From assembly GCA_964035575.1 (NCBI GenBank), contig OZ037842.1:992001-1056000 (forward strand): 64,000 nucleotides of DNA, read 5' to 3'. Both the position numbers and the translations under genes were made by a program. Positions 15,579 through 62,781 of the stretch are shown in pieces. How positions within the stretch are numbered: position 1 is the stretch's first letter; every line of letters begins with the position of its first letter. The notes under the pieces were generated by a model that saw nothing but the letters and a program-made list of their open reading frames with translations, searched no databases and was not told where the DNA came from. This stretch comes from Rhynchopus sp. YZ270_cl-10 (taxonomy: Eukaryota).

Positions 15579-16175
15579 AAAGCTACCCCCCTCCCGACTC
15601 CCATATGAAGGAAAAAAAAGCAAAAGAAAAAAAAACCTATTAACGTAATGTGAAGCAAGGCGTGGCATGTAATGTTGTTTGTTTGCATCCAAAAGAAGGG
15701 TGAATTTAAAGGTAACCAAGCATCGTGCTTAGGTTCATCCTCACAAACTTTTCTCTTTCTTTTATTTTGTTTCGGATGTTAGTACTTACTGTTTGTTAAA
15801 GTAGTAAGTATTTGCATTTGCATGTTTTCTTTCACATCTTTTGAAGAAATTTAGAAAGACCTGGGAGGACAGGACTAATTGCCTTCCCGTCTGGAAACAA
15901 AAAAAATCTACAAAAGAACAACGGAAGAAACCTACAAGAAAACTCGCGTGTGTCTCCTATGTATATCCCCCTGTTTCAAAAAAAACAAAAACAAAAAAAA
16001 AAAACGACGTATAACAATTACGGGGTTGATCTGGGGGGTGCTTCCCCCCCCTTCCGCCCCTTATCCACACAAGCCGACGTCTTTTCTCTTTATTTTATTT
16101 TATACCACATTTTTTTTTCCTATTCCCCCCCCGACTAACGACCTTTATTCAAAAAAAAAAAAGAGCAATTTGTTT

Positions 16176-17038
16176 CAGGGAAGTTCCTAAGTGAGACCGA
16201 GAACATGAAATTCTGGATTTTAGTTTTTTTTTCCTTTTTTTTTTTCCTTTTTTCCTTGGGGGGCTTTCTTGTGGTTTCTGGTGGGTGTCACTGTAGGTGA
16301 CACACCACCAGTGTGGTGAAATGGTCGAAACTCTCAAAAGCAAGAGTTTTCAGGGGGCAAGAAAAAAAAATTGACACCAAAATCCTGCACCATCCAGGGC
16401 TGTATCCCCAATTTTTTTTGCCTGCGGCGCCATTTTTCATTTTTTGCTCTGCAAAAAAGGGTTCGTTGGAAGCTAGATTTTTACACCGTACCCAAAATTT
16501 TTTGCCTGCGGCGCCATTTATATTATTTTTTTGCTCCGCAAAAAGAGAAGTGCAAACGCCTCACCGTTCATCGGCGGAAGCACTGGTTCCACGGGTTATC
16601 GAACCCCAGAGAGCTACCACGAGGGAGCGTATATGCAGGCACAAAATCACTGCCCCATCCAAATAATATTCCCAACGTCTTTGGGGATCCCCTTGCATTT
16701 TGCAGCCAAAATGCAACTAGACCAAAGCTGCAAAAAGTTCCGCGCGCGTGTAGCGCGCCCGGATTTGGGACCCCTTTTTGAATTTCGAGGGGCGGTTAAA
16801 GTGGGCCCAGAATCACAGTTCTGACACTCATTTAGCATTGTGAGCAACGTACTAGTTGTCGTAACCAAAATTTGTATCAATCAAGAACTTGTCCATTTTC
16901 TCGAAATGACCCCACTACAGTGAGGGTAGAGCTCGGAAAGCCCGAAAAAGGGCAAAAAACCCCACCCAAAAAAAGGAAAAAAACGGGAACATAAATCCAG
17001 AATTTTGCTGTTTTTTCCGAGAACAAGGGGCAACCCTG
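16176..17038. mobile_element. hAT-like non-autonomous element B, copy 1
   Basis: Termini CAGGG...CCCTG. Perfect 8-bp TSD ATTTGTTT (16168-16175, 17039-17046). Close second copy at 25441-26328. Confidence 0.9.
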
Positions 17039-17123
17039 ATTTGTTTTGCTTCTTCCTTTTCTCCCTCCCCTTCTCTTACCCCCTTACCCCTTCTCACAGA
17101 CTATTTAAAAGAGATCCACGAAG

Positions 17124-17909
17124 ATGGCTGTGGTTATTGCACGCCATGGAGAGAGGTCTGACTATGTTGATCGCGAGGCTTTTGTGAAGTCTACACAGTT
17201 TCAGGAGAGGCCGTGGGATCCTTTGTTGACGGAGACAGGGCGGAAGCAGGCGGGGTTGATGGCTGCACGGGTGCAAAAGGAGTTGGTGGAACGGGATTTC
17301 CCTCCTGTTACTCGGGTGTTCGCATCGCCTTTCATCCGCACCGTGGAGACTGCGGAGGAGGCGTGCAAGGTGCTTGGCATTGACACAATCCATGTCGAAA
17401 ACGGGATGGTCGAGGCGCTCTGTGAGGAGTGGTTCCGCTCCTGGGCGGTGCCCGGTGCAGACACAACCTGGGGTGGTCCCAAGCACTCCCGCTGTGGCGT
17501 CCCGGTCGCCACCTCCGACATTGACCCGCGCGCAATGAAAGGCCCCTCCGCCTGGCTCCTCACACCTGAAGAGCTCAAAGCCCGTGTCTCCCCCCTCGTC
17601 TCTCTGACCTACGAGCCGCACATCTGCTTCCAAGACAACATCACCTGGGAAACCCCCGAAACCATGACCGGCGACACCGCCGCACGCTGCGCAGAGACCG
17701 TCCGAGGTGTCGCCCGGAGATACCCCAACGAGACCGTTCTGTTCCTCTCCCACTCCGGCCCGGCGCAGAATATGTACGCAAAATTGACCGAAGACCCGAA
17801 GATCATCCCATGCGATTACACAGGGGTCTTTATGTTTAAACCGAAGGATGCTGAGCATAAGGAGCCGTATGAGGGGCTCTTGAAAGGCTGCAGTGAGCAC
17901 ATTCGTTGA
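17124..17909 (+). CDS. Histidine phosphatase (phosphoglycerate mutase superfamily)
   Basis: RHGER, DPLLTETGRKQA, FASPFIRTVETA, LFLSHSG. Confidence 0.92.
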   Translation: MAVVIARHGERSDYVDREAFVKSTQFQERPWDPLLTETGRKQAGLMAARVQKELVERDFPPVTRVFASPFIRTVETAEEACKVLGIDTIHVENGMVEALCEEWFRSWAVPGADTTWGGPKHSRCGVPVATSDIDPRAMKGPSAWLLTPEELKARVSPLVSLTYEPHICFQDNITWETPETMTGDTAARCAETVRGVARRYPNETVLFLSHSGPAQNMYAKLTEDPKIIPCDYTGVFMFKPKDAEHKEPYEGLLKGCSEHIR

Positions 17910-18072
17910 TTTGTCTCAAGGTAACTGAACACGAGGCTTGGGTTCACCTTATTAAACTTTTCTTTGTGTCGTACATTCGTGTCGTATTATACAAAACGTA
18001 ATGCTTATCCCCCCCCCCTTATCTTTCACTTTGCATCTCAAACCCCTCCTACTTCCCAACATCTACCTCAGA

Positions 18073-19164
18073 ATGGACATTACACTGATTGATGAGGCTG
18101 GGACGTCTCTTGTATATGAGGTTGACCCGTCAGCTACGTTGCAAAGATTCTCTGAGGAAGTAGCGAAGCTGTTCGGTAAAGATGCTGGAAGCATTCGACT
18201 AATGTACGATGGTGCGGAGCTGGAGTTCGTTGAACAGCTGGAGGCGGGGTCGGAGGTGTGTGTTGAGGTGTCGTATTTGGCGTATCAAGAGCTCCTTCGG
18301 AAGAAGGGGTCTCGATTTGACCAAATGCCGAAGCATGTGCGCAGCGACCACGCCACCGCCCTAGTTGCTCTCCAAATGGATTTGCACTGTCTCCCCAAAG
18401 TCGGCATCTCTCTGCAGACGGATCACCGCTTTCTCGTTGACGCTGTTCGCGTCTCGGTCTACGTCATTCGCTCCAATGCGATGGCAAAAAGCGCAGACCT
18501 CCTCGTCGCCTGCATCGAGGCCAACCCAAGTTGTCTCCGGATCTGCCCCTGGGGGATCCTCACCGACCCCATCATGAAGCGTGTTCTCGCCCTCCGTAGC
18601 GATATGCTTACCTGGCTCCCATCTGCGATGATGAGACACAAATATGTGCAGATGGCAGTGGAGCTGGACGGTCTATCCCTCCGCTACGCCAAACAGGAGT
18701 ACCAAGACGACGCAGACATCGTGGATGCAGCGATCGAACAGAACCCTATGGCACTGCGCTATGCAGGGCGTGTTCTGCGTAGTTCTCTTTCCAGGTTGGT
18801 GATGAAAAAATGTCCAGGGTTTCTGCAGTTTGCGGGGCACGATCTCAGAGATGATCGCGATATTGTGAAAGAAGCAGTTACGTCCGACTCAAGTCTGTTC
18901 AAATTCTGTAGCAAGCGACTCAAGCAAAACACCGAGTTCGTGATTGAGATGATGCAGATCGATGCGAGTCTGTTCAAGCAGGCCTCTGCAAGCGTCAGGT
19001 CTGACCCGCACGTTGTAGAGTTGGCTCTCAAAGCACAGGAAGCGAAGCCGGGCATGCTTCGCTTTGCATGCCCAGTGTGTGGTGCGTCGCGTAGCAGGAC
19101 GGGGTGTTATTTCAATTCAGAGGAGTCGCTTGCGATCCATATGAAAGACGCGCATTCGAAATGA
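18073..19164 (+). CDS. Ubiquitin-like N-terminus + DUF4116-like repeats + C-terminal C2H2-like finger
   Basis: IRLMYDGAEL is ubiquitin-like. Repeats DDADIVDAAIEQNPMALRYA and DDRDIVKEAV. C-terminal CPVC...HMKDAH. Confidence 0.75.
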   Translation: MDITLIDEAGTSLVYEVDPSATLQRFSEEVAKLFGKDAGSIRLMYDGAELEFVEQLEAGSEVCVEVSYLAYQELLRKKGSRFDQMPKHVRSDHATALVALQMDLHCLPKVGISLQTDHRFLVDAVRVSVYVIRSNAMAKSADLLVACIEANPSCLRICPWGILTDPIMKRVLALRSDMLTWLPSAMMRHKYVQMAVELDGLSLRYAKQEYQDDADIVDAAIEQNPMALRYAGRVLRSSLSRLVMKKCPGFLQFAGHDLRDDRDIVKEAVTSDSSLFKFCSKRLKQNTEFVIEMMQIDASLFKQASASVRSDPHVVELALKAQEAKPGMLRFACPVCGASRSRTGCYFNSEESLAIHMKDAHSK

Positions 19165-19960
19165 ATGTCCAATCCGTCACATGAGGAATGCGAACCGGCA
19201 CATCGCCATTGAACCTCCTAACCAATATGTTGCGAAGGTGATCTACACGGTTCCATTCATTGTCTTTTTAGTGCATCTGCAAAAAAGCTGCCATTCTACT
19301 TATACACTATAGTGCGTGCGTCCGTGAGGAATGTATTTTTTGGTTTGTTCTGCTCAAGATGGACAGATGTTTTTATGTGACCAGGACTTATTTCAGATGA
19401 CACACGGGAGGCTTAGTATCATCTCACAATTTTCTCCTTTATTTTTCCTAAATGTGAAGATGTGTGTGGATGAGATAAGACAAAGATTTATCTTTTGTGC
19501 TTTTTTTTCCCCCTCTCTCTGTCTCTCTTTTTCTTTTCTTTTCTTCTCGCCTTAGCCTTTTGCCACTTGTAACTCGACCAATCTACCGTGCCACGTCAGC
19601 TAGATTATAGGTGAAAGTTATGATAGAGGCGAAGCGCTCTGTCTGTAAATAAGACAGGCAACTTGTTCTTGAGACGGCATAATACTTGTTACATATCAAG
19701 GCGTCCTATAAACTTTTCTTTTTTGTTTGCTGAATGGTTTACGAATGCAAAATATGACCCACCGCCCTTATTTCACATCCAAACTCGCCTCTTCCGATAC
19801 CCCAATGTACGTTTCCAACTCACCCTCCGTGCAGGCGTCCCCTCCCCGCCCCACTACACAAACCCTTCCGCCTCTTTTTAAAGGAGGTGTGCTTTCGCCC
19901 CTTTCCCTCTTTTTTATCCACCTAAATTATTCCCCCTGATCCACTTCATATGTTGGTGAG

Positions 19961-21136
19961 ATGAGGGTTCTCTTTTTGTTGGTTTGTGTCTCATATTGCA
20001 CACATGCTGATGATGTGGGGAATGTTGAGGTGGACTACTTTGACAGTGATGACGACAACACGACATCTGCGCCAAAGCACATGTCCACCGTCCCTACCCC
20101 TGCACCTGGCTCAGTTGACCTACGCTGCAGGACGTTCCACTCATGCTCTGTAAACGGCGACTTCCTAGCACGTTGCATCCGTGGTGCTTGCTCATGCAGC
20201 ACAGGGTACAAACCCGCGCACGTCGGTGGCGTGGTTGTCCCCCTCTGCATGCACTCCGAACAGGAGATCGAAAGCATGAACATAGGTGTTCAGTTCCGCC
20301 TCCAATGGGCCTACCTCGACATACAGTCCTTCGATTGGGAGCATTTCGACGAACTCACACAACTAGTGGACAGCATCCTCGGGCAGGTCAAAGGGCGCCT
20401 TGTCATCTCTCTCCGCGGCACCGACATCATCGGGGTTGCGGATGTCTCGGTGATGCAGCTGGAACGGCTTGATTCGTTTGAGAGCTCCCTGCGGGAGGGG
20501 ATGACGGGCACATCGCTGAGTGCGTACTCCTCAAACTTTTCCTCCGCAATCTATGCGGGAGAGGACTGCCCTCCTGTGGTTGGTGTGCTGTATCAGGTCC
20601 CCGACCCGAGCGGTGGATGTGTCCCTACACAGTGCAGTCAGGGGTACTCTTCTTCACAGGCAGGGACGAGATGTGAGTTGACGGAAGACTCACATCCATT
20701 TGTCTCTGCACCGAGGGTAGTGGGGTTTATCGTTGGGTCTTTAGCATTGCTTGTGGTTATTGGCTTTATTTTGACGTGCACCTATCGGAGTAAAGGGAAG
20801 GGAAATATGCAGGGCAACGGTTGCCAGGAGAAGCACACAGAGAACACGCATCTCGACACAACACGTTCAATGGTGTCGCTGTCGTCCTTCACACAGTCGC
20901 AGCCCTCCCCACGGCCTATGGACGTAGTGCTTCCTCCCATCCTCAAGAAAAAGGACTCTGAGATCCGCCCTTCCGCCCCTCTCCCACCTATCGACCCCTC
21001 CACCTCTACCTCGTCACAGCAGACAGAAAGAAGCGCCTCAAAAGCATCTGCACTTCATTTCCACCAAGTCATCGTCGACACCACAAAAGACGAACCCGGT
21101 ACCCCACCCTCAGAACCAGAAGAAGCGAGCATATGA
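19961..21136 (+). CDS. Type I membrane protein with Cys-rich (EGF-like) ectodomain
   Basis: Signal peptide, CIRGACSCSTGY, a single hydrophobic helix VVGFIVGSLALLVVIGFILTC, Ser/Pro-rich tail. Confidence 0.8.
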   Translation: MRVLFLLVCVSYCTHADDVGNVEVDYFDSDDDNTTSAPKHMSTVPTPAPGSVDLRCRTFHSCSVNGDFLARCIRGACSCSTGYKPAHVGGVVVPLCMHSEQEIESMNIGVQFRLQWAYLDIQSFDWEHFDELTQLVDSILGQVKGRLVISLRGTDIIGVADVSVMQLERLDSFESSLREGMTGTSLSAYSSNFSSAIYAGEDCPPVVGVLYQVPDPSGGCVPTQCSQGYSSSQAGTRCELTEDSHPFVSAPRVVGFIVGSLALLVVIGFILTCTYRSKGKGNMQGNGCQEKHTENTHLDTTRSMVSLSSFTQSQPSPRPMDVVLPPILKKKDSEIRPSAPLPPIDPSTSTSSQQTERSASKASALHFHQVIVDTTKDEPGTPPSEPEEASI

Positions 21137-25433: not shown

Positions 25434-25440
25434 CTTCCGT

Positions 25441-26328
25441 CAGGGAAGTTCCTAAGTGGGACCGAGAACATGAAATTCTGGATTTTAGTTTTTTTTTCCT
25501 TTTTTTTTTTTCCTTTTTTCCTTAGGGGGCTTTGTTGTGGTTTCTGGTGGGTGTCACTGTAGGTGACACACCACCAGTGTGGTGAAATGGTCGAAACTCT
25601 CAAAAGCAAGAGTTTTCAGGGGGCAAGAAAAAAAAAATTGACAACAAAATCCTGCACCGTCCAGGGCTGTACCCCCAATTTATTTTTGCCTGCGGCGCCA
25701 TTTTTCATTTTTTGCTCTGCAAAAAAGTGTTCGTCAGAGGCTAGATTTTTACACCGTACCCAAAATTTTTTGCCTGCGGCGCCATTTATATTATTTTCTG
25801 CTCCGCAAACAGAGAAGTGTAAACGCCTCACCGTTCATCGGCGGAAGCACTGGTTCCACGGGTTATCGAACCCCAGAGAGCACTTCATTGGCATGCACAC
25901 GGTTACCACTAGGGAGCGTGTATGCAGGTACAAAATCACTGCCCCATCCAAATAATATTCCCAACGTCTTCGGGGATCCCCTTGCATTTTGCAGCCAAAA
26001 ATGCAACTAGGCCAAAGCTGCAAAAAGTTCCGCGCGCGTGCAGCGCGCCCGGGTTTGGGACCCCTTTTTGAATTTCGAGGGGCGGTTAAAGTGGGCCCAG
26101 AATCACAGTTCTGACACTCATTTAGCATTGTGAGCAACTCACTAGTGGTCGTAACCAAAATTTGTATCAATCAAGAACTTGTCCATTTTCTCGAAATGAC
26201 CCCACTACAGTGAGGGTAGAGCTCGGAAAGCCTGAAAAAGGGCAAAAAAACCCCACCCAAAAAAGGAAAAAAACGGGAACATAAATCCAGAATTTTGCTG
26301 TTTTTTCCGAGAACAAGGAACAACCCTG
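25441..26328. mobile_element. hAT-like non-autonomous element B, copy 2
   Basis: Near-identical to 16176-17038. CAGGGAAGTTCC / GGAACAACCCTG termini. TSD CCTTCCGT at 24281-24288 and 26329-26336, separated by element A. Confidence 0.9.
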
Positions 26329-28838
26329 CCTTCCGTACAAAAGGCTTCCGATATTGAGTACAGACCCTAGGTTACCCAAGCGGGTCCTTTGGGATTTTTT
26401 GTCGACACAAAACTACTAATTGAACGAATGAAGTTCCATTTTCTCCTTTTCTTTATATTACACAACACGGACATGTGGTATGTCTCTTTTTTTCACAAAA
26501 AAAGAGAGTTTTCCACGGTCCCAATGAGCTTCATCCCTCTCACGCTTTAGGTGACTAAACACCCATTTCTCTTTTATCATTTAACTCTGAATACCACGTA
26601 CCTTTGTGTTCTTAGCAAACTGCATCAAGAAAGCATTGCCACACCCTCCCCACAAACCTCTGGGATCTATCGCCAAATATGAGGTTTTACAACAGAACAA
26701 CAGGAAGGGATGAGGGTTAAGGCACGCTATTTAGCAACGCTTTTTAACGCTATAAACACAGAACCAAGCTTTTGCTTGGGCAAGGTGTTTTTTTTTCTCC
26801 TCTAGGATATTAGCGGCTCGCTTTTGTTTTCCTTCCTCTCACCGCTGTGCGTGGTTTTGGATATTTTGACTTTCACTCTATTTCTATGATTTTTGTTTTC
26901 CTTTCTCGTCTTCTTTGTGTTATTATGTCTGAGTTTTCACTCAATCTGATAGGAACAACTGTGTGTATCAAGGAGCAATTTGACAGAGAAAGGTAGTCTC
27001 TGAAAGTGGCAGTTGTGTGTGTATGTGTGTGTGGGGTCTTTTCTTGACAGATTTTTTTTGTGCAGATCGTGCATAGGGGCACATCCTTTCAAGGCTTTTT
27101 TTACTTCTTAATGCATGAGTTCGACTGAGATGTGTTTTAGCACGTTTCAACTATTCTTTCTTATGGCAGAGGAAGAAACCATGTGTCTAATAATGGCAGT
27201 GGGCACGTGTCTGCTGCCCCATGGTAGTGGTCTAAAGTAAAGAAAAAATCTTCTTTTTTTTGTTTGTTTTTGGCAGCGAAGTCAACCCAATTGCCCACCT
27301 AACCACATCTCTTGCTTGTCATATTTCTCGTTTCGCTGACGGGAAATGTGACCTTTTTATTTCAAAAAAAACACTGGGGTTTCGATAACCTACAGAGTGT
27401 CAGTGCCCGCTGTCCCAGAGGCTTTTGCACCGACAACTTTATTTTGTACCATTTTCGTTTTTTTGCATGACCTTTGCGAAGTGTCTTCTGCGGTTCGATA
27501 GCCAGAGTATTGTTGCGTTCCGTGAAGTCGTTTGCACTCCTTAAAGAAGTCTGCACAAGCGAGACATATTTAACGCCAATTAACAAAGTTATTATTTTGG
27601 TGACTAAGCACCCCCCAAGCTTAGGCTCATCTTACAAAAAAAAACCCTTTTCTCTTATTTTGCAATGCGCATCCTTTCGTGTTTTCTTCCCCTTCCTGTA
27701 CAATATGTGGAAAGGGGGAGATTCCTTTTAGTTGGCGAACCATCTCAATATGTGAGACCAGCTCATCTTTCAATTCTGTATTTTTTATTTTACTTTATTC
27801 CCTCCCCATCCCTTTCTACCAAATTCGAAAAAAAAATTAGTCTGGTGCGTAACATCTTTTTTGCAAACAAAAGATACTGACGTAGGTTTGGACATCCAGT
27901 CCCCGCATTTTATTGTGCTTTCATCCGGATGGCTGGCATCGTACGTGGGTCAGTCGGAGGTGCCTGCATTGATAACTTCACTTTATTTGAAATGTGTGGG
28001 ATAAAATGTGATGAATGAAGCGCATATTTTATTTTTTAAAAAAATTCCTTTTCATAAAGTCCCCTTATCAATACGAAACAGTATTTGAGGTACCTCAGGA
28101 AATGTTGGGCTATATTTCTAAACAAGATATAGTACTGCTTTTATTTGGGATCTTGTTTTTGATATTTGGTACTTTCGTGAGATATGCGCTGGCATATTCC
28201 TCTTCAAGCTTTTGTGTGATTTTTTTTTTGTGCCGTGTAAACCACTCATCCTCGATGTTTTCTATTTTATTTTTATTCGTGTCAAAATTTGTGTAGATAA
28301 AACCTGAGTAGGGCGAAAGTCATTATTTCCCTCTACCCTTTCCTCTTCAAGCTTTAAGTTATTCATACAATTTGCGGACAGGATATTTTTTGAAAGTGTC
28401 ATGTCGTTCGCTCACCCAACCATGCTGCCACAACCACCACCACCCAAACAGGTGAGAGATAATGTGTGTGGAAGCGTTAACGCATCAAACAACAAGAAGG
28501 GGGTGGGAACGACAAATGACACATATTTAAAATGCGATTTTCTTTTTTATTGATCAAGTTGTAATTGAACATCGCAATAAACAAATTTGTGGCCAGAACG
28601 GATTCGGTTTTTAATTTTTTTTTTTTTGGTTTTTTTTTTTTGTCTTTCGGTGACTAAACATGAGGCTAAGGTACCGCTTACCAACCTCTTCCCTTCTCTT
28701 TGAGTACCACCATATGTACAGTAATATTGGTCCTGATCCCGAATCCTTTTCCCCCCACAAATCAGATGTCAGAGACAATACAATCACATTTCTTTTTTTG
28801 AAGGGCGACGGAGCACGAGAGGCTTCGGTTCATCCAAC

Positions 28839-29533: not shown

Positions 29534-30790
29534 ATGTCTCTGCCCATTATAAAAGTGTGTGACATCCCTAAGGATTGTGCAGAGCCTGTGGATGCGAAGG
29601 CTTTGGAGCAGGCATCGGTGATTGTGAATGACATTCGTTCAGGCGGAGAGGCGAAGGTGCGTGAGTGGGCAGAGCGTTTGAAGGATGTGCCTGAAGGGGG
29701 TGCGTTGTACGCGAGCAAGGCAGAGATGAAGGAGGCGTATGACGAGCTGTCCGAAGGCGTGCAGGAGTTGCTTCAGCGGACTGCGGGGCGCATTCGTGCC
29801 TTTGCCGACAAACAGCGCAACAGCGTGACGGACATGAAGATGCCCATCCCCGGTGGCTTCGCAGGCCACGAAGTCGCCCCCGTGAAGTGTGCAGGCTGCT
29901 ACGCACCAGGCGGCCGGTACCCCCTCCCTTCCTCGGTCCTCATGACAGCGGTCACCGCACGCTCTGCAGGGGTGGAGGAGGTGTGGGTGGCAAGCCCGCG
30001 TCCAAGCAACGTTACGCTTGCAGCTGCGCACGTTGCAGGGGCAGATGGGTTTCTGAGGGTAGGCGGTGCGCAGGCCATCGCATCGCTCGCAGAGGGTGTG
30101 GGGTGCGAGGCTGCCGATGTCATTGTCGGCCCTGGCAACAAATGGGTGACAGCAGCAAAGAGCCTTGTACAGGGGAAGTGCAGTATCGACATGCTTGCAG
30201 GGCCTTCTGAAGTGCTTGTCATCTGCGATGAGACGTGCTGCCCAAAGACCATCGCCGCAGACCTGCTTGCCCAAGCCGAGCACGACACCGACGCACGCCC
30301 AATTCTTCTGTGCACCGATGCAGACACAGCGCACGCGATCATAGCCGAGGTTGACACCCAGCTTGCAGTGCTCCCCACCAAGGACACTGCCGTGGAGGCA
30401 GTCAAGAAGGGGTTCTGTGTTCTCGTCGACACAATTGAGGAAGCAGTCAAGATCAGCGACTCCATCGGGCCAGAGCACCTCGAAATACAGACAAAAGACC
30501 CCGAGAAGGTGGGGCGGTCTTGCTCTAGCTATGGTGGGCTGTTCATTGGCCAGTCTGCGGCTGAGGTGCTGGGCGACTACGGTGCAGGCCCCAACCACGT
30601 TCTCCCGACAGGCGGTACCTCGCGCTACACCGGTGGGCTCTCTGTCTTCAACTTCCTGAGAATTCGTACCTGGATGTCGATTGATTCGAAAGAAGATTCA
30701 CAGCAGTTGGTCAAAGATGCAGTGGAATTGGCAAGATTAGAAGGATTGGAAGGGCACGCCCGTGCAGCTGAGGCAAGGCTGTTGAAGTAG
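29534..30790 (+). CDS. hisD: Histidinol dehydrogenase (monofunctional)
   Basis: YAPGGRYPLPSSVLM, GGAQAIA, GPGNKWV, IDMLAGPSE, DLLAQAEH, PEHLE, GDYGAGPNHVLPT, LARLEGLEGHARA. Confidence 0.96.
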   Translation: MSLPIIKVCDIPKDCAEPVDAKALEQASVIVNDIRSGGEAKVREWAERLKDVPEGGALYASKAEMKEAYDELSEGVQELLQRTAGRIRAFADKQRNSVTDMKMPIPGGFAGHEVAPVKCAGCYAPGGRYPLPSSVLMTAVTARSAGVEEVWVASPRPSNVTLAAAHVAGADGFLRVGGAQAIASLAEGVGCEAADVIVGPGNKWVTAAKSLVQGKCSIDMLAGPSEVLVICDETCCPKTIAADLLAQAEHDTDARPILLCTDADTAHAIIAEVDTQLAVLPTKDTAVEAVKKGFCVLVDTIEEAVKISDSIGPEHLEIQTKDPEKVGRSCSSYGGLFIGQSAAEVLGDYGAGPNHVLPTGGTSRYTGGLSVFNFLRIRTWMSIDSKEDSQQLVKDAVELARLEGLEGHARAAEARLLK

Positions 30791-33779: not shown

Positions 33780-34892
33780 AAAGGTGGTACTCATGCGACC
33801 CCAAGCGAGCTGGGATTTGAAAGGATTTGTTTTGAGAAGGGGGATGTGCGTGTTTCCTGCTTGCGTTTTCGTCAAAATCACTGCAACCTTTTCCAAGGTA
33901 AACAGTTGGCGCGTCGCACCCCATACTTACCCCCAACCCTATACACGAGATTTGTATTTATTTTTTTGTCCCTGTGAGGGGGCATTTTTACGATTGCGAC
34001 GAAAGTGTTTGTATTTGAAAAAAAAGCAATATTGCTTAGGTGACCTGAACACGAGGCTTGGGTCATCTTCACCAGCTTTTCTTCGTTTTAACATGCCCCC
34101 CTTTTTTTTGTTTTGTTCTCAAGGGGATGGGCCTTTGCCATTTTCTTTGCAGTCATTCTGTACGGCATACTTGGTAAAGCAAAGTCCACTACCCCTTGCT
34201 CGGCTGTTAATGTTTTCTTTTTTTTATCCTTTTTTGTTTTTGCTCCACCCCCATGATTTATGAAGTGCTACGAAAGAACTGCTGATGCACAAAGAAGAAT
34301 CATCATTGTCCATCAGTAGTTGCTTATCATTGAAGAAAGGCGAGGTACGACCTTACTGAAGCAAGTTTTCTCAAGTTCTGCTTTGGTAAAGGCTATTTTC
34401 TTAAGGTGACTGAACACAGTTGTAGATTCACTTTGCCATCCTTTCTCTCTTGTTCTTTTGCCCGTAAAATATGTGACCCACGGTAATTAGACCCACACTG
34501 CCAAAAATGGGTGCTCATTCGGTTAAGTTGGGTGCTTTTTTGTGTCACCACGTTTTCCCCGATACTTGTTTCCTGTATTTCACAATCTTATGTACGCACT
34601 CCGTGGTACTTCCCGCCACTTTCGCATAATGTGAACCACAACCCCCACACACCATCCCTCTTCCACCCCTAACACCACGTTGTGAACGAAGCCCCCCCAA
34701 AATGCCATAAACGCTGCAAAATAAAACGAATTCTATTTTCTTTTGTACACTTCTGTTGTAGTCCGCAGGGTACTTTCATAATGCTTTCATCCGAGACTGT
34801 CATCGGGCAATCAGAGGTGCCTGCATCAATAACTTCCCTTTTTTTTTTTCTCTACTTACCCCCGCGCTACAGGGTTGTTTTTCCAAAAAATC

Positions 34893-35780: not shown

Positions 35781-36692
35781 GGGGGGTAGGGTGGGCAGGG
35801 GAGGGTGGCGTTGCAGCCACCCTGACGCTTTCCTGTTTGTACAGATTAGCGTAAAGGAAGGCACAGCAGTGTACAAAAAATGGGTCAGGCATGATAGCAG
35901 CAGTGCAGGTAGGTCTTATATTTGAAATCCTCTCTTTCGAGGGTGCAGCAGCATCAGAACGATTGTGGGTGGGGTGGGGTGCATGGGGTGGGGTGGATGT
36001 TCGTTGATTCAACACCGTTGATTCAGCATGATTTGGAGTCTGGCGAAGCTTGCGAAAGGGGTGATGAGGATCTGTGCTTGAAGAGGGGAGGGTGTGGGAG
36101 GGGAAGGTGTGCTGGTCTTGTGTTGCACGGTGGCAGCAGTGCTGCCCAACAGCCTCGGGTCTCAGCCTGCTGGCGGTGTGCCGTGCTTGGATGGAGCAGT
36201 TCTTGGTGCAGCAACGCTGCAGCATTGGCTGCTCAGTCTCAGTATTGCATGTCGCCCGATGGCGGAAGCACGTTGCATGTGGTGGTGAGGTTTGCTCAGG
36301 TGGGTCTGTTGCAGCGCATGGCACGACCACACGCACATTGGTGCATGTGTGTCTCGCAAGCATGCTTTCAGAAGTTGTGGTCCATCACTCAAGAACAGCA
36401 CTTCCCTCACACGGATGGAGCGTGTCAGGGTGAATGACTGCTGCTTTGCTGAACCAAAGCATACACGGCTGAGTTGGGTGGGGTGGGGTTTGGGAAGGGA
36501 TGTCTGATCTGAGTTGTTGTGCTGAGTGCAATGTGCACGAAGTGTGCAGGTGGTTTGGACGATGAACGTTGAGGGAAGGAGAGAAGAGGAGAGGATGGGA
36601 TGAGATGAGAAGGATGCCAGAGTTGTTAGTTTGTGCGGAGAGTGGGTTGGTAGAGGGGTGGGGTGGGGGAAGACGTGTGCTGAAAGAAGACC

Positions 36693-36975
36693 GTGCAATG
36701 ATGAAATAGAGTTGTGGCGACGGCTGCAGAAGGCTCCGCAGAAGACATGCACCCTACGCAGTCTTTTGGGTAAAGTCCCTCAGTGTTCACAGAGCTGTGC
36801 GCCCCTGCCATCTCCAGAGGAGAGCTGCCGTGTGGCAGTGCCCTTCTTCGTGAAGGTGCGCAGGCAGGTGTGCGTGCTGTCTCTTTGGATCACAGTCATG
36901 GAGCCTGCAATGTGCGCATTGCAACCTCAAGAGGGCTTATTCTCTGCATGCCTGCCTGCACACTCTGCTGAGCAC
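36693..36975 (+). ncRNA. Candidate RNase MRP RNA enclosed by a box C/D terminal motif, copy 1
   Basis: P1 GGCTGCAGA (36722-30)/TCTGCATGCC (36943-52); P2 GCTCCG/TGGAGC; P3 CAGAAGAC/GTCTTTTG; CR-I GGTAAAGTCCCT; CR-IV AGTCA; P19 TGCAATG/CATTGCA; CR-V ACCTCAAGAGGGCTTA; P4 AAG(T)CCCT/AGGGCTT. Box C ATGATGA 36698-704, box D CTGA 36968-71, terminal stem GTGC/GCAC. Confidence 0.8.
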
Positions 36976-37849
36976 ACCACTGATTTGATGAATTTGATGA
37001 AGAACCGCACCTGTGTGCTCACTTGCCGATCATGAGGAGCGCTGTCTGGGTTGGGTGACGTGCGTGATGGGAGGGTGGGTGGCACTACCAGGCTTCAGTG
37101 TTACTGATGCTGCGTGGTGTGCCTTGCTGTCTTAGCCGCTTTGGGTTGCATGCCACACGTTGACGTCAGTCATCGCGTTGGTATCTGTGTGGTGGGGTTA
37201 GCATCTGTGTGCTGTGTGTACAGGGTGCAGTGCGTTTACATCACACTCTGTGTTGTCTCTCTCACTCTCTGTGTATACAAGGGACCTCTTTGTTGTACAT
37301 GGCTTGTCTCCTGCCAAGAACGATCGCCATGTGGCAGGAAAGCAGCTCGGGTCTGTGGCCAGGGTAGTGGCTGGGTTCACCTCAGGTGCAGGGGTTTGAC
37401 TATGTCAATCCTTTTGTTCGCTGGGTGTGTTGTCTGACGCATGAACCATCCCACTCTGAGCTATGCTCAAAGTGACGGGTTCACATTCTGTGCAGAACGA
37501 TGGTTTTCATCCTCACCTTCTGCGGGTTCTTGCTTCAACCTACACTGTACCTTCACATTATTTGAGGGCATCATTTTCGTGTACTTGGTTGCTTCAAGAG
37601 GGTTGGGGTAGGGTGTTGGGTGTGGGGTGTGCCATTGTGCATATTTAACCTCCTTTTTGAGGTTCCGATTCGTTTGGTTTCGCTTCGGTGTGACACAGAC
37701 ATGACTTTCTCTTTGGCCGCATTTCCATTTTTTTGGAATGCCTCCCAACCCCGCTTTATTCCTGCTTGTTTGTTCTTCAATCGAGCGGATGACGTTACTG
37801 TGTGATATGCTACACGACAGACCCTCTTCTTCACTCTCACTAACGCACT

Positions 37850-40800
37850 ATGTCCTTCACACTGCCCCCGCTGCCCTGGGCCATTGACGCCCTTGCCGCC
37901 AAGGGTATCTCCAAGGAGCAGGTGGACTTCCACTACAACAAGCACCACGCTGGATACGTCACCAAGCTCAACGCCGCCGCCGAGGCACGCCCCGAGATCA
38001 AGGACAAGAAGATCGAGGAGCTCATCGTGAACAAGGACGCCACATACAACCTTGCCGCCCAGATCTGGAACCACACCTTCTACTGGAACTGCATGTATGT
38101 GGGGAGGGAGGTGATGGGGTTGGTAGAGGGGTGGGGTGGGGGGGAAGGCGTGTGCTGAAAGAAGACCGTGCAATGATGAAATAGAGTTGTGGCGACGGCT
38201 GCAGAAGGCTCCGCAGAAGACATGCACCCTACGCAGTCTTTTGGGTAAAGTCCCTCAGTGTTCACAGAGCTGTGCGCCCCTGCCATCTCCAGAGGAGAGC
38301 TGCCGTGTGGCAGTGCCCTTCTTCGTGAAGGTGCGCAGGCAGGTGTGCGTGCTGTCTCTTTGGATCACAGTCATGGAGCCTGCAATGTGCGCATTGCAAC
38401 CTCAAGAGGGCTTATTCTCTGCATGCCTGCCTGCACACTCTGCTGAGCACACCTTGATGAACACTGGACACAGTGGTTGATGACATGCTGTCTGTCACAT
38501 GGTCACATTCCTGATGGGTGGGTAGCTCAGGCTCAGGCTCAGGGGTTCGGGTTGGGGTCAAGAAAATAGAAATCATGCTTCTGTCTCAGAAGGCCCTCAT
38601 TTGCACCAACGAGGGTACACTGGTGGCACCCTCCATTTCACAACCACAGTCGTTTTTTCACAAAGCGGGGTTCATTTGGAAACGGTACTGTGCATTGTCC
38701 CATGTGAGCCACGATCCCAGAACGGATTGGCTGTTGCTTCGTTGCATCATCTACATGCGCAGCGTTGGGTAGAAGCGGGTTCCATCTTCCAGTGCTGAAG
38801 ATCATCAACAGCATGAGGGGTAGGGAGAATCTGGCCCGGTCTTAATGGGAAATAGTCAAAGTTGACTCCTAATAGGTGCATTTATTTTTTCCAGAGTCCC
38901 TTTCCCAGGGTCGATTTTCATGAGTGCCGAGCCCGGGTGAGGTAAGAAACACCTTGGGGTTACAGGCCCTTCCAAACATTGTGCGGTTGTTCTGTGTGTG
39001 TTCATTGGTCATGGGATGGCAGGAGGGGTCTCGAGTCTACTCTGCCATTGTCGAGTCTCGCGTGGCTCCTCCAAGCGCCTCCTTCACCCTCGTTACTGCC
39101 TTCTGGGTAAAGTTATGTGATTTTGAGCTCCAGTGCATCTACTGTGTGAAGAACAACCGGGAAACCACAGGTAGGGCATCTCACACGTTGCCTGCGTCAC
39201 ACAGGCAACGGGTGGCAGTAGGTGCGGAAATGAAGGGGGAAGGTGTGCTGCTGCAAAGAGACTGCACTCTTCCCCTGATCTTTCTTGCATTTCTCTGAAC
39301 GAAGAGTGCAACACTTGGGTGGTGCCTCTTGACGTGGCAGTGGAGATGGGCACAGGCGGCTTCATTTTCTCGCACAGTCATCTTTCAAGTTTCCTTCTGC
39401 ACACACCACTGCAGCTGTGGTGCTGCACCACAGCTGAGAGGGCTCTCCGCAACGTAGAGAAAACACTCCAGACAGTTGCCAACAGAGTCAAGCGTCCTCG
39501 TCGTGTTAGGGTGTGGGCCCCTCCTTGACCTTGGTGGACTTCGCAGCAAGCCACTCTAGGATCGTGCTGATCAGGGTCTGGAGCCTTGAGCACTTATGCG
39601 TCCTGATCGAGCGTCCTGCGTGACATCCCCGAAGGACAGTAGTGGTGCACGTCGCTCTGCAGTGGCATGGTGCCATTATGTCATGCGCATGCACGCCGTT
39701 CTTTCTTACTTGAGGCTGGCATCGTACGTGGGTCTGTCAGAGGTTCCTGCACCCATAACTATTCTTCTGAACTCGACCCAAGGTCTTGAGGATTTAAGCT
39801 TGCCACACACGGTTGTCTTCTCACAAGTCTTCGGCGAACTTAGAACAAGGAGCAGAAGTACTTTACACGCCTTTCCCCTGCTCACGCTCATGCACACAGT
39901 GATGCCTTTCTCAGGCACACCATGTCTTGCACACTTATCCATCCTGAGCCCTGCCTTGCCTACCCTGAGGAAAGCAACTTAGGTGCAATGCCTCAGTTTG
40001 TAGCTCCCCCTCCCCTGGCACCTTGCCGTGGTACGGTACACAACAGTGCAAATGTGCTAGAAGTTGTTGCACCACCTTCCGGTGCGAGGGTATCGCCATG
40101 ACAAAGTGGAGTGAAAGGGATTCTTTGAGTGCACAAAGGGTCTAATTTACATTGTTGTAGAAATGAGGGGACAACGTGCAGAAACCAGTTTCTCGGACAG
40201 TGCTGAAAGGATATGCCAAGAGAGCTTGCTCGGGGTTGGGATATAGGCACATAGCATACTAACCGGCAACCCTGTGGCAAAAAGAACTATCGGGTGTGAC
40301 CTCATGTGAGACATACATGGGAGTGGCGCAGGCCACGCTGCACCAGTGCGCAGGAGTTTACTGGTGAGTGATTTCAACCTGGGTTATTGTGTTATTTCAA
40401 AGAGGGGATTGGCTCCAGAACTGCGGATCACACCGCGTTTTCGGATGATGAAAACGGTCAGAATCGAAAAGTTCGTCAAAAAATAAACCCAAAGAAGAAA
40501 ACACATGACAACTTTCTCCGGATAGAAGCAGTTTCAAATTACCCAAGCATTTCAAGGGAAGTGCGGGATCTACATGACATCCTGTACATATGGCAGGAAG
40601 CATCACCTACAAGAAAGCGGGTGGTGAATAGGAAGGTGCTCATCATGCGTGCCTGACCTTCCCGTGAAGGTGATGGGGCGCGACTGTGACTCTTGGTCTG
40701 CCCTTAGGCGTTATGGAGGGGACAAGCGACATGCTGTATAAGCACTCGTTTTTTCGAGCCTCGTTCCAAACCTAACTGGCCCACTCGCTTCCGACACCCA

Positions 40801-42961
40801 CTGCACGTGTATACGCGTTGGGCTGCGGACTGACACTGTTCAGCACCGGAGGGAACTCACCACCCGGCACGTCCAAGGCTCGCGTTGCAACATCAACAAC
40901 CCGTGCAACAGGAAGAAGCTGCACAACATCCTTGGTGGCTTCTGCGTAAAGAACTGTCTTGGCAGGTTTATTTGATGTGAAGTGCACAACTCCAACGGAT
41001 GCCAATAAAAAAACCCACCTTGCATCACTGGGATTCGCACAAATGGGTTTCTTAATGAAATTTATTGTGCGTGAGTACCGCTAAGTGCATAACAAGGAGA
41101 TAAATGCGTGATGTCTGCACGGCACGCGACAAATGCCCGAAGAAGTTCGATGGCAAGGGAAGTAGGAAAAAGTTTGTGCAAAAAGAGGGTGACATCACGT
41201 ACAGTGCCCACTTGGTTGGGTGGTTTGTCGAAAAACTAAAAATGTTCACGTGCTTCGTGTGCGAACATTTCGTGGCTCACCACGCAGTCAATTGTAGTAT
41301 GGGGGAGTACTTCCCCTTATGCACCCAGTATACGCATTCCGGGGAAAATAGCCTGGGTGGCGACATGGAAGCAAGCCAGTGGGGAGTGACGTGTAATGTA
41401 TTTTTTTATCAGATGTAAACCATGAAATGGATGTTGGACTGCATGGTTGGGGTCCACCAGTCATGTACCAAGGTGCACTGTCACGAGAGGGGTTTTGTAT
41501 TTCAAGTCAACTTTTTTCTTTGTTGAGGCATCGATTTTCCAAATATTCCCAACATGAGCCCTCATCGTACAAATGATCGACCACACAATATGTCGACCAC
41601 AACAAAGGTGAACCGTACTTAAGTTGGGGATTTTAGGATTTTTGCCAGCTTGGGTCTGCACGCTCCAACATTTGTACGTTTACGGTATTACAGACACGTC
41701 CAGACATTTTACAGCACTGCCCTTCGGGGCTGGGTACACGGGTGGGGGACCTGTCTTTCACTGATAATAAATGTTATCGTCTTCGTGTGGTTCTTTGTGA
41801 GGGTGTGTGCAGAAACCCCACTATAAAACAGTGTACGCCATAGATACAGAATGCGCATCATGCGCAAATTGTGTAAAAAACACAAATTGTCATGCGCATA
41901 TTTTTTTGTGTTTTTTCTAAGAGAAAAACACAAAATTTTGCGCATTAAAAAAAACAGCAAAAAAATATGCGCATTTAGAAAAACACACAAAATTTTGCGC
42001 GTCATGCGCATTATGCGCATTCTGATGCGCATATTTTTTTGTGTGTTTTTCTAAAATGCGCATGTTTTTTTGTGTTTTTTTGTGTTTTTTGGTATGCGCA
42101 TCACACATATGTGTTATGCGCATACCAAAAAAACACAAAAAGACATGCGCATGAAGAAAAACACAAAAAAATATGCGCATCCACTTTTGTTTTTTTGTAT
42201 GCGCATGACATAAAAAAAACACACAAAAAACATGCGCATAACACAATTATGCGCATTATGCGCATTCTCTAGCTATGGTACGCCTCCTCACCTTTTGGGT
42301 AGCATTAAGTGCACATCTGTCTTTTTTTGACACGGGGTTGGTCAGCCCAGCGTTTCCTCCTACCCAATCCTTGTAAAGGAACACCGGAAGGTTCCATCGT
42401 GAAAACATCAGCATCATAGTCAACCTAGGGGGTGGCACAGCTCCCCCCGGTCGATCACATCTATTTTATGAGGGATCTAAGAACGCAAGGCTTATCCTAC
42501 CAACTAACTTTTCATTGTCTTTTCCCAGAGAATTCAATATTTTCCCCACTTTTACTTGCGTGGGTCGTTTTAGCGTGAAAGGCCTTCTGTTAAACTCTTA
42601 TCTTTTCAAAACCATATTCTTTTTTTGCAGGGCGCCCAACGGTGGAGGTGCCCCGACCGGCGCCATCAAGGACGCGATTGACAGAGACTTCGGATCGTTC
42701 GATGAGATGAAGAAGCAGTTCTCTGCTGCTGCCGCTGGCCACTTCGGAAGCGGATGGGCGTGGCTGGTGAAGGACGGTGACAAGCTGAAGGTGCACCAGA
42801 CCCACGACGCTGGCTGCCCTCTCTCCGAGAACCTGAAGCCCGTGCTGACCTGCGACGTGTGGGAGCACGCCTTCTACATCGACTACCGTAACGACAAGGC
42901 CAAGTACGTCCAGACCTTCTGGGACGCCGTCAACTGGGACTTCGTTAACTCCAACCTGTGA
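37850..42961 (+). CDS. sodB: Iron superoxide dismutase (SODB-like), 2 exons separated by a 4.5-kb intron
   Basis: Exons 37850-38094 and 42631-42961 join as WNCM|APNGGG. Motifs HYNKHH, NLAAQIWNHTFYW, HFGSGWAWL, CDVWEHAFYIDYRN. Confidence 0.96.
38168..38450 (+). ncRNA. Candidate RNase MRP RNA enclosed by a box C/D terminal motif, copy 2 (intronic)
   Basis: Identical by eye to 36693-36975 (offset 1475). Starts 73 nt after the FeSOD intron donor. Confidence 0.8.
41408..41515 (+). repeat. Representative copy of ~110-nt dispersed repeat (family 3)
   Basis: AAACCATGAAATGGAT..TGCATGGTTGGGGTCCACC..TTTGTATTTCAAGTCAA at ~41408, 43927, 61481. Confidence 0.88.
41839..42277. mobile_element. Foldback-like MITE built from ATGCGCAT palindromes
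   Basis: TIR CATAGATACAGAATGCGCAT / ATGCGCATTCTCTAGCTATG. More than 15 TGCGCA units. Flanked by direct repeat GTACGC (41833-38, 42278-83). Confidence 0.82.
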
Positions 42962-54266: not shown

Positions 54267-56320
54267 TTACATCGTAATTATAACACGTATTGAACGTGTT
54301 CCCCCATGCCCACCATTTGAACAATGGTTCGATAGTCTACAGCTACACTCGGGGCAGCTTTGGTAGAGGTGGTACAGTGCCTGCATCCACCTTGAGGTGT
54401 CTGCACGTTACCAAGTTCATTTTTTTAACGACTATGTTGGGTGTGTGGCGTGCAGCGTCGAGAGAGAAGAATAGGGAAATCGAACCACACCGGACGGTTA
54501 AGTTCTAACCCTCACCTCTCCCACCAACGTGTTAATCAACCACAATCACAACAAAGTGACAAAACGCTTGTTGTCAAACCTGACAAAGTTAGAATACATT
54601 CGTGTGTGCAAACGGAAAAAGCGATGCATGGGCCATTTTCCGTCTGGGGGTATAAATTGTTGTCCTTTTTTTTTGAGAAGCTCAGAACACTTCATCAGGA
54701 GGCGGGCTGCTGTCGACGAGTGGTGGACAGCCCCGTCCACAGTGGGTACGGTACACCTCAGTGTCTTTTTGCATCTTCTGTTTGCATTTGCATCCGTGAG
54801 GTGTCTGACAATGACCATTTTTTTGTGCACCCCAAAACCAAAGACAAAAGACAAAGTCGTCAGAAATTGTATTCCCTTTGCACCCCTCGCACCCCTCTCG
54901 TTTTGTGCCGTGGCCAGGTCAATACCACCTTCTGTTGTTGGTCGCAAGGTGCTTGTGCTTCATCCGGATGGCTGGCATCGTACGTGGGTCAGTCGGAGGT
55001 GCCTGCATTAATAGCTATTCCCCCCCTTTTTTTTTGAGTGCAAAATCAGGGTCCTACCTTGGTTTTGAAAAAAAGTGCCAAATCTGGGATTTGGGTCAGC
55101 AGGGGTTTTCGGCAAATAAAACCCCGCTTGCGGGACAGGGGTAGTGTTCAGTGCTCAACAACGATGTTGGGACTTTTTCCATTCCTTTTTTTTAACAAAA
55201 ATAATGGGTAAGGGGGAAGCACAATGCAACCGTGTTCGAGGGCAACACGAAACCCCTGAATTTCAGACAAAACTAGAAAGGGCCCCACACCTGATTGATG
55301 GCAGAGAAGGGTCATCAAATTGCCAAAATTGTGGTAAAATTCCCACAAGGGAATCAACTGACAACTGTTTCCAGCACCACTTTTATCACCATTTTAGTGT
55401 GAACGTCTGAAGTCTACGACAGTCTTTTGCGAGAAGAGCGATACTTATTTGATGCATTCCGGCTGCATTCTAACGAAGCCCTCCACGGTTCGATAACCCG
55501 AGGTCTGGTGTCTGCGTCCCTAGAGGCGTTTGCACTTACAACTATATTTGACGCTGCCTGCATCCACGAGGTGTCTGCACATTATCAAATCCACTTTCTT
55601 TCATCTAAATTTACTACGTACCCAAAACCTGCTATCAAACACACCCACACCGAAGCTACCCCTCAGTCTTCTGTAGCACCCCCAACCCCCTAACCCCTAG
55701 TCTCTAACCCTAAATAGGCAATATTCCACGCAGGAATTGATTTCCAACACACACCCACGCCAGAACAGAAGAACTCAGTACACAAAAGGTTTGAGCAAGG
55801 GGGTAAAGGGGCAAACATTGACGTACCGAATGACACAGTCGAATCAGAAGTAGCAATGACCGCTGGAGATCTCTGTACTTTGTCAGGGGGGGTCAACTAA
55901 CACAGGGTTGGTCTGTGTTTCTTGACCCCCTCTGAATTTATTTTACACTATCCTGTCGCCTTTTTTTTTGTCCATTTTACTTTTAAACGGATGCCTCCTG
56001 TCAGAGTTTCCGGAAGAAAATAATAGTATAGTGGAGCTCATCCTCGGGTGTACACTAATACAACTTTTCAAAATAAAAGAAGTAGTGGAGCACATCCATG
56101 GGTGCACATTAACGCACTGTCCCCCCCATCCTAGAGTATCGAATCTAGGGTACTTTTTCCAAAAGGCTACGACCGCGAATTTTCTTCTTCCAGCACAAGA
56201 TGAAATGCTTTATTTTCTCCTGAATTTGAAAGTACATATTTTTTTTTTATATACGAGCGGTTGTGTACCGCCCTCGTTCTCTTACGGTACGGGTAGGTCT
56301 ACTTCGGTTTACTTTTACAT

Positions 56321-56420
56321 CTTCTGTTGTTGGCCGCAGGGTACTTGTGCTTTCATCCAGCTGGCATCGTACGTGGGTCAGCGGGAGGTGCCTGCATCAA
56401 TAACTTCACTTTTTTTTTTG
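56321..56420 (+). repeat. Representative copy of ~100-nt dispersed repeat (family 2)
   Basis: Core GCTGGCATCGTACGTGGGTCAG.GGAGGTGCCTGCAT..ATAAC at ~27913, 34750, 39714, 54929, 56321. Confidence 0.88.
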
Positions 56421-61612: not shown

Positions 61613-62781
61613 CCCTTAGCCAACCAAGGCATTTTTAGGTGTGTTTTTTTGTGTTTTGGGGGTCCAGGCTCTCCAAGAGGCAAAATGTGAAGGGCAACGA
61701 CTTTTTGACCGATTCTGGTCGCAATTGAAAGATTTTGAGCAGAACTTTTGACTATTTATGTTTTGGACTTTTTTTGAAAAAAAAATATTTTGTAAAAATC
61801 CAAAATGCTTGGAAAAAAACACCCAAAAATTCGAGAAAATTAGCTCCCGCAGTCCTCTGACGAAATATGTGTGCAAAACCGGAACTCGAAAATGGCGTTA
61901 TTTGAAAGATCGAGAGCAAATGACATCAGTGTATTTTTTGGGCCGGTTGGGGGGGGTCAGTGACCCCCCCCAAATTTTCTCCGGAAATTTGGGCCGGTGG
62001 GGGGGGTCAGTTTTTTCAGCTGGGTTTGAGGTGTTTCCTCGGCGTGGTGTAAAAAGCTATACATTTACACCGTACCCAAAAAATTTTTCGCCTGCGGCGC
62101 CATTTTTTTTTTGTTTTTTTTGCTCCGCAAAAAAATAAAAATATACAGTTCACTATGTTCCCTGGTCGTGCTGAAAAAAAAAATTGGGCAAAAAAACAAA
62201 CTGACCCCCCCCAAACTTAAAATCTGGATTCCTGGATAAGACACTGAATGACATCAATAAAAAAAAAATCGGTCAGAAATATGGAGTAGAAGTTGTATGA
62301 ACAGCTTGAGAGAGGAACAAAAAATAGTGAAAACCAGTGAAAAGCAGTGAAAACAGTCAAAATCAGTCAAAACCAGTGAAAAACAGTGAAAAGGAGGTGA
62401 AAGTCCTGTTGGTGTGAGGGTGGCTGTGTTACGAATGGGAGGTCGTGCGACCCCGCAATTGCTTTATTTTTGCTCATATGTGACAAATAACATATTTTTG
62501 ACATTTTTTGGGGTCTTGGTTGGGCCTTGGGCACCAACCCAAAAACCAGACAATAACATCAACTTTCAGTGTTCGGGGAGGACAATCCCTGGCGCTGCCT
62601 ACCAAATATGTGGTTGTTTTTTTCTCCCGAAAACATGTTTTTTGGAACGTTTCGTGACAAATCTTTTCAACAAAAAAAAAAAAATCGATCAAAAAGTCCA
62701 AAAAAAAATTTTGTTTACTGGTGTTCTTCATAAAATCCCCCAAAAAAACAACCCCTGTACGGGTTGCTGGTTGGCTAAGGG
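61613..62781. mobile_element. piggyBac-like non-autonomous element
   Basis: TTAA|CCCTTAGCCAACCA ... TGGTTGGCTAAGGG|TTAA. Internal ~10-bp AAAACAGTGA tandem array at ~62321-62392. Confidence 0.88.
61927..62246. mobile_element. hAT-like MITE nested in the piggyBac-like element
   Basis: CAGTGT...ACACTG termini. Perfect 8-bp TSD AATGACAT (61919-26, 62247-54). Shares TTTACACCGTACCCAAAA..GCCTGCGGCGCCATTT with element B. Confidence 0.85.

Follow-up and report, generated by a model that had tools for sequence, protein, structure and literature searches.

An RNase MRP RNA closed by a box C/D motif in a diplonemid, with a similar layout in Trypanosoma brucei

Introduction

RNase MRP, an enzyme with a part in rRNA cleavage, is nearly universal in eukaryotes. 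Its canonical RNA (Rfam RF00030; human RMRP, yeast NME1) contains helices P1–P4 and P19 and the conserved regions CR-I, CR-IV, and CR-V, with a CR-IV of six nucleotides in RNase MRP and eight in RNase P. The diplonemid RNA described here has the same elements, with a shortened P3 and P8 region, whereas canonical RNase MRP RNAs end at P1 and are without C/D boxes in the descriptions consulted. In the animals and the alga covered by excerpts of two surveys, MRP RNA is made by Pol III (PMC4287351, PMC7671301). A relative that does not follow this rule is the intronic RNase P RNA of insects and crustaceans, a P/MRP-family RNA that lacks Pol III signals and lies in an intron transcribed by Pol II. 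In contrast to the present case, it is an RNase P RNA, and the excerpt that describes it names no C/D cap and leaves end protection open (PMC4287351).

Box C/D snoRNAs, including U3, have a terminal k-turn formed by RUGAUGA and CUGA and are encoded in introns or polycistrons (PMC7277114, in part). As set out in section 2.1 of that review, Snu13 attaches to the C/D k-turn, Nop56, Nop58, and fibrillarin are brought in through stem II, and nucleolar localization requires the C/D pairing. The ends of polycistronic or intronic snoRNAs are finished through exonuclease trimming, according to the excerpts consulted. The diplonemid RNA has this terminal k-turn and differs in that it has neither a C'/D' pair nor a free guide, its interior being an RNase MRP core. 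The telomerase RNA of trypanosomatids, which belong to the same phylum, is likewise made through the box C/D biogenesis pathway, with Nop58 and Snu13 bound to it; its 5' end is trans-spliced, whereas in the diplonemid a ribozyme-type core has both its ends closed by the boxes (PMC4993307, in part).

An MRP RNA that lies in a snoRNA cluster and bears a C/D name is already on record in trypanosomes, and the feature reported here is partly foreshadowed by it. The first descriptions of this T. brucei RNA are reportedly those of Liang 2005 and Barth 2008. Alm Rosenblad 2021 is said to have found the MRP RNA throughout Euglenozoa but, in kinetoplastids, not its proteins. In the tables consulted the T. 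brucei RNA is TB10Cs1C2 (MRP), 520 nt long and located in snoRNA cluster TB10Cs1 (PMC3273796), and Table S2 of PMC6411936 lists its type as "C/D snoRNA". The snoRNA genes of trypanosomes are transcribed polycistronically (PMC3273796, in part). Two other assignments for the T. brucei MRP RNA, TB11Cs2C2 and a 270-nt RNA of the SLA1 locus, were discarded as wrong, since these are a 92-nt snoRNA and snR30. According to the excerpt of a 2025 paper, trypanosomal RNase MRP orthologues could not be identified (PMC12702573), and the protein make-up of RNase MRP is described as unclear in some groups (PMC9849065, in part).

Results

An RNase MRP RNA in a diplonemid

The window, i.e. the whole 64,000-nt stretch of DNA that was analyzed, comes from a diplonemid, a marine protist. 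A peptidase encoded at 13956-15578 has as its best named relatives an entry labeled "Rhum" (56%), which we take to be Rhynchopus humris, and Diplonema papillatum (45%). Elsewhere in the window, a histidinol dehydrogenase (29534-30790) has cryptophyte and stramenopile proteins as its nearest named relatives (~63%), and an 830-nt element occurs twice (16175-17007 and 25440-26297, identity 88-97%), with its GCCTGCGGCGCC motif found again at 62072.

The RNA of interest lies on the + strand, as do its second copy and the Fe-SOD exons and intron described below, with a predicted mature, C/D-capped form of 283 nt at 36693-36975 (copy 1). Rfam gave no matches in the window at the gathering threshold. 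At a relaxed threshold, RF00030 was the best family for both copies and matched at full length (model positions 1-266) at 36721-36952 and 38196-38427, scoring 37.4 bits against a gathering threshold of 50 (E 3.8e-8 with 7 kb searched and 1.7e-9 with 311 nt searched). Within this core, P1 is formed by 36722-36729 and 36944-36952 and P2 by 36733-36737 and 36900-36904. CR-I (36768-36781) supplies the 5' strand of the P4 pseudoknot and CR-V (36924-36943) the 3' strand; the pseudoknot can form by pairing of AAG-T-CCCTC (36773-36781) with GAGGG-CTT (36931-36938). CR-IV (AGTCAT, 36894-36899) stands directly before the 3' strand of P2, and its six nucleotides point to RNase MRP rather than RNase P. 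P3 is short (36740-36767), with a 7-bp stem and a 14-nt loop. In a test for the GARAR motif of P8, the hairpin after P4 had the loop GAGC or AGAGCT, and a GAGAG was present at 36820, off the usual place. The stretch 36693-36975 is a diplonemid RNase MRP RNA and belongs with the MRP family rather than with the guide snoRNAs.

Control MRP genes were obtained by searching metagenome contigs with a CR-IV/CR-V pattern, which returned eight loci. One of these (L002) had no Rfam match and was rejected as an MRP locus. The other seven (L001 and L003-L008) are MRP genes of the Pol III type, apparently from one unrelated organism; they are slightly different genes, with P3 in two lengths. Compared to the control RNAs, the diplonemid P3 is without the long second helix and the region after P4 (P8) is 19 nt shorter. 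The control RNAs end at P1, all seven are followed by oligo-T, and none of the seven has a box D within 120 nt. A TATA-like box was found in all six control genes that have upstream sequence. An MRP RNA that ends at P1, with oligo-T after it and no box D, as in the controls, is the ordinary state.

A k-turn with boxes C and D closes the RNA

Outside P1, the diplonemid RNA continues into an irregular helix with a 5' arm at 36705-36721 and a 3' arm at 36953-36967. Beyond it lie box C (ATGATGA, 36698-36704), which is an exact RUGAUGA, and box D (CTGA, 36968-36971), the sole CTGA of the RNA. The ends are joined by a terminal stem (k-turn stem I) of GTGC (36693-36696) and GCAC (36972-36975). A36697 sits between GTGC and box C, and 36697-36699 form the 3-nt bulge. 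The sequence-only reading had described P1 as extending into an irregular helix that ends in GTGC-A-ATGATGA and CTGA-GCAC, with canonical boxes in k-turn geometry and a 4-bp terminal stem. This description is exact to the base and applies equally to copy 2, offset by 1475 nt. In both copies, the boxes are exact and near the predicted ends, and the k-turn shows the 4-bp stem, the 3-nt bulge, tandem G-A pairs, a U-U pair, and a G-C pair.

No sign of a guide function was found. A C'/D' pair was looked for within the RNA, which contains no internal CTGA and one weak C-like word at 36850. There is no free guide of at least 10 nt before box D, its place being taken by the 3' strand of the P1 extension, which is paired within the RNA. 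When this region was compared to nine rDNA loci, which were those of other eukaryotes and not of a diplonemid, the best match was 7 nt, low among 221 background CTGA sites. Since the bases 5' of box D are paired and a C'/D' pair is absent, the boxes would act as a tag for biogenesis and localization rather than as part of a methylation guide.

The strength of the motif was assessed by counts and by folding. The window has 20 RTGATGA sites on its two strands, and only the two MRP copies among them combine a CTGA 50-320 nt away with an in-register 4-bp stem. The P1 extension appears in the minimum-energy fold with a z of -2.5 (4 of 200 shuffles were as good). The arms outside the Rfam P1 pair at -13.2 kcal/mol, and 51 of 2000 shuffles of this outer extension alone were as good; when P1 is included, 0 of 2000 were. 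Pair probabilities of the extension were 0.84-0.96 in the 283-nt RNA, 0.44-0.49 with 5 nt of flank added, and at most 0.06 in freely folded 460-nt precursors, in which flanking sequence competes with the extension and the terminal stem. The statistical weight therefore lies with the boxes; the helix is a good one, but it does not dominate when the precursor is naked.

These numbers bear on the possibility that the boxes are present by chance, or derive from neighboring snoRNAs, and that the MRP RNA ends at P1. Box C-like words do occur just downstream of the copies (36985, 36994, 37032, and 38454), and the 51 shuffles mentioned above would fit such an origin for the outer helix. However, only 6 of 2,000,000 random pairs of 40-nt flanks gave a box C, a box D, and four Watson-Crick pairs in this layout, the core is flanked by box C on its 5' side and box D on its 3' side without a further CTGA in between, and the layout in T. 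brucei, read by eye from the printed locus, is the same. We consider this possibility extremely improbable.

Two copies, one in a spliced intron

Most of the long ORFs of the window are on the + strand, including all eight with Pfam matches among the 12 scanned. Copy 1 lies within this run of genes, between a cyclin ORF and the gene for an Fe-superoxide dismutase (Fe-SOD). Fe-SOD exon 1 (37850-38094; Sod_Fe_N, E 6e-23) and exon 2 (42631-42961; motifs FGSGW and DVWEHA) are separated by an intron of 4536 nt (38095-42630, GTATGT...GCAG), which hosts copy 2 (38168-38450). One contig of run X6, which was guessed to be RNA, contains the exon 1-exon 2 junction, with one difference in exon 1, and thus indicates that the intron is spliced. 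The junction of exon 1 with the leader of copy 2 is backed by DNA-type contigs of runs X1 and X4. Copy 2 starts 73 nt past the 5' splice site, with 4.2 kb left to the 3' site. In mammals, C/D RNAs usually have another position within their host introns, a point against the model discussed below.

Some repeats were also noted in this part of the window. The Fe-SOD intron contains an AT-rich inverted repeat with many ATGCGCAT words at 41876-42196, possibly a small mobile element. A dispersed short repeat of 35-58 nt is found at 34800-34850, immediately ahead of the pyrimidine tract that precedes the cyclin ORF, with relatives at 27920-27977, 39703-39760, 54959-55016, and 56348-56405. Its contig depth is 16,000-20,000 compared to ~90 nearby, and it seems to be very abundant in the genome.

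Copy 2 is identical to copy 1 over 36693-36978. The identity had been said to stop 3 nt after the terminal stem. This is correct for the gapless part, which spans 36674-36978, but 8 further bases match after a 6-nt gap. On the 5' side, the copies have a G-rich leader of ~49 nt in common (36644-36692; 38117-38167 in copy 2); since the shared sequence reaches 36644, the stem is not their boundary there. A further copy in run X5 has a different upstream sequence. Its leader is replaced, and the shared sequence begins only at 36692, one base before the stem. A shared contig of run X1 likewise starts at 36692; it covers 36692-36894 at a depth of 648, compared to 83-96 for the long flanking contigs, although depth is no copy number. 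Joints from 38560 to 37030 and from 36517 to 38112 represent arrangements that are absent from this assembly. The genome seems to hold more MRP copies.

Additional sequences related to the locus were seen in the sequencing runs, of which seven out of nine (X1 and X3-X8) were compared; X8 gave no contigs here, from which nothing follows. An MRP-like copy in runs X3 and X4 diverges from copy 1 by 10 substitutions and an insertion across 36685-36782; 36690-36710 is unchanged, and 36711-36782 has eight of the substitutions and the one insertion. This copy may be a pseudogene and was not counted as evidence of conservation. One X4 contig parts from the MRP sequence at 36892 and may represent a truncated pseudogene. 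The blocks after the two copies (37030-37211 and 38451-38560) have raised depth and are joined together in runs X1 and X4. Each contains a C/D-like candidate, at 37032-37107 and 38454-38514. No antisense match above background was found for these candidates in the rDNA of other eukaryotes (23 and 9 loci); the best matches were 11 and 12 nt, and the 12-nt match falls in a spacer. The MRP RNA may sit in a repeated cluster of small RNAs, as it does in T. brucei.

Transcription signals at the two copies

The absence of an oligo-T Pol III terminator after either copy was borne out, with longest T runs of 3 (copy 1) and 2 (copy 2) within 100 nt of the stem and no run of four T within 200 nt downstream. 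No TATA box, B box, or tRNA gene was found near the copies. Inside the RNA there is a run of four T at 36764. In the shared leader, loose matches to what we take to be the A-box consensus were found at 36648 and 38121.

Another possible explanation for the locus is that Pol III transcribes the RNA together with a leader that can be removed, the boxes serve for nucleolar retention, and the intronic position of copy 2 is incidental. The A-box-like words could be part of such a promoter, the leader was duplicated together with the gene, and Pol III is the enzyme named for MRP RNA in the surveyed animals and alga. However, the words belong to low-complexity, G-rich sequence, the X5 copy is without the leader, and the lack of a B box, a tRNA gene, and a terminator is accompanied by the four internal T at 36764. 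We therefore regard transcription by Pol III as very unlikely.

The T. brucei MRP RNA has the same box layout

The T. brucei locus was taken as printed in supplement 2 of PMC3273796, and its boxes and helices were read by eye. An identical ATGATGA precedes the MRP core and a CTGA follows it, with 536 nt from box to box. The boxes are joined to the core by nested helices of 4, 4, 5, 3, and 9 bp. The helix sequence is wholly different from that of the diplonemid, yet box D stands opposite box C, and an A-G opposition follows stem II as in the diplonemid. CR-I (AAAGTCCCTC) and CR-V (GAGGGCTT) are identical in the two species. By eye, the terminal stem is only 2 bp, and an internal CTGA is also present. 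The likeness thus comprises the CR-I and CR-V words, the boxes around the core, and a long irregular joining helix, and in the printed material no Pol III-type gene of its own is evident for the T. brucei RNA, which has a C/D name and class label. The two differ in length (~536 nt box to box compared to 274 in the diplonemid) and in location, the T. brucei gene being in a snoRNA cluster and diplonemid copy 2 in the intron of a protein gene.

The C/D label alone proves little for TB10Cs1C2, since the same table of PMC3273796 also gives a C name to snR30 (TB11Cs2C3). The label of TB10Cs1C2 may be inherited from its first prediction.

Whether the boxes flank P1 in other euglenozoans had been named as a check on the motif. 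They do in T. brucei, as read by eye, but pattern scans of metagenome contigs, viral contigs, and prokaryote genomes returned no second diplonemid or euglenid MRP RNA. The CR-I/CR-IV/CR-V pattern had 0 loci in viral contigs and one in prokaryote genomes (L009), which was rejected as an orthologue because it had no MRP match. As a separate observation, 23 contigs in genomes filed as prokaryotic (L010-L032) contain a eukaryotic 18S primer site; all six that were scanned hold eukaryotic rRNA genes, which is probably bin contamination. A conserved protein-binding motif would be expected to give this pattern, in which two distant lineages keep identical boxes while the helix that bears them is rewritten. 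From these two species, one of them read by eye, the cap is likely ancestral to kinetoplastids and diplonemids.

The ends of the RNA were considered next to a second reading of the boxes, in which they act on the precursor only and later trimming back to the inner P1 leaves the enzyme with an ordinary MRP RNA. For T. brucei, the published entry of 520 nt begins 37 nt ahead of box C and breaks off with 49 nt still to go to box D. It therefore leaves out box D, as this reading would have it, but it includes box C, and its reported size comes near the 536 nt measured from box to box. From run X7, which was guessed to be RNA, the sole piece of 4.2 kb is a 250-nt contig (38196-38445) that starts at the inner P1, a weak point in favor of trimming, but reaches 18 nt beyond P1 into box D. 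Contigs cannot show ends, and this one favors neither the full cap nor the trimmed form. Overall, trimming to the inner P1 seems distinctly unlikely to us.

A single bound protein is another way to account for the motif. In this case, the k-turn would bind one L7Ae-family protein (Snu13 or Rpp38/Pop3) that stabilizes the ends, and no full C/D particle would form. RNase MRP has a subunit of its own, RPP38, which is akin to L7Ae, and the RNA is without a C'/D' pair. The k-turn loop and G-A pairs suffice for Snu13, as stated in the excerpt of PMC7277114. However, the consensus is retained in full by both species, down to the U-U and G-C pairs of stem II, which are needed by Nop56/58 and fibrillarin and not by Snu13 (PMC7277114, in part). 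We judge binding of one such protein alone to be unlikely.

Discussion

The T. brucei boxes, the snoRNA cluster and C/D class of that RNA, the spliced Fe-SOD intron, and the lack of Pol III signals together support a Pol II precursor. The sequence-only reading of a C/D-capped MRP RNA from Pol II precursors has in this way gained independent support from the T. brucei boxes, the splicing, and the missing signals. At a probability of about 0.7, we propose that long Pol II transcripts are the source from which the MRP RNA is excised, and that the core proteins of C/D snoRNPs then hold and protect it.

Under this model, the RNA would originate from the Fe-SOD intron or from an intergenic part of a polycistron. 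Exonucleases would trim the precursor as far as the Snu13-bound k-turn. Stem II would next allow Nop58/Nop56 and fibrillarin to load, and the loaded proteins would set the ends near 36693 and 36975. Through the C/D proteins the particle would be retained in the nucleolus, the site at which its MRP core would cleave pre-rRNA within ITS1, and the boxes would serve as a tag for both biogenesis and localization.

The cap had also been suggested to offset the reduced P3. No support was found for such compensation; the T. brucei cap is on an RNA about twice as long, and there is thus no reason to link the cap with a short P3.

The feature is less new than first thought, since the trypanosome RNA already bears a C/D name and class label. 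In the literature searched, we found no statement of a terminal k-turn for an MRP RNA and no diplonemid case, which does not establish their absence from print. A possible precedent in Giardia did not appear in the excerpt of PMC3228867.

A further step would be that RNase MRP of diplonemids and kinetoplastids is a hybrid, with a ribozyme core set in a box C/D snoRNA and with Snu13, Nop56/58, and fibrillarin as permanent subunits that replace part of the Pop set in assembly, end protection, and nucleolar delivery. We offer this tentatively and think it somewhat unlikely; none of the literature searched puts it forward. If true, it would explain why the usual MRP proteins are not found in trypanosomes.

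The conserved C/D cap has several consequences. It predicts that the RNA co-purifies with Snu13 or Nop58, either of which could serve as a tag for isolating the enzyme and cataloging its proteins, and it predicts corrected ends for the trypanosome MRP RNA. It also provides a search motif for MRP genes that score under the Rfam threshold. Routing through the C/D pathway fits genomes that are transcribed in Pol II polycistrons, and RNase MRP would, with the telomerase RNA, be a second catalytic particle of the phylum to be routed this way.
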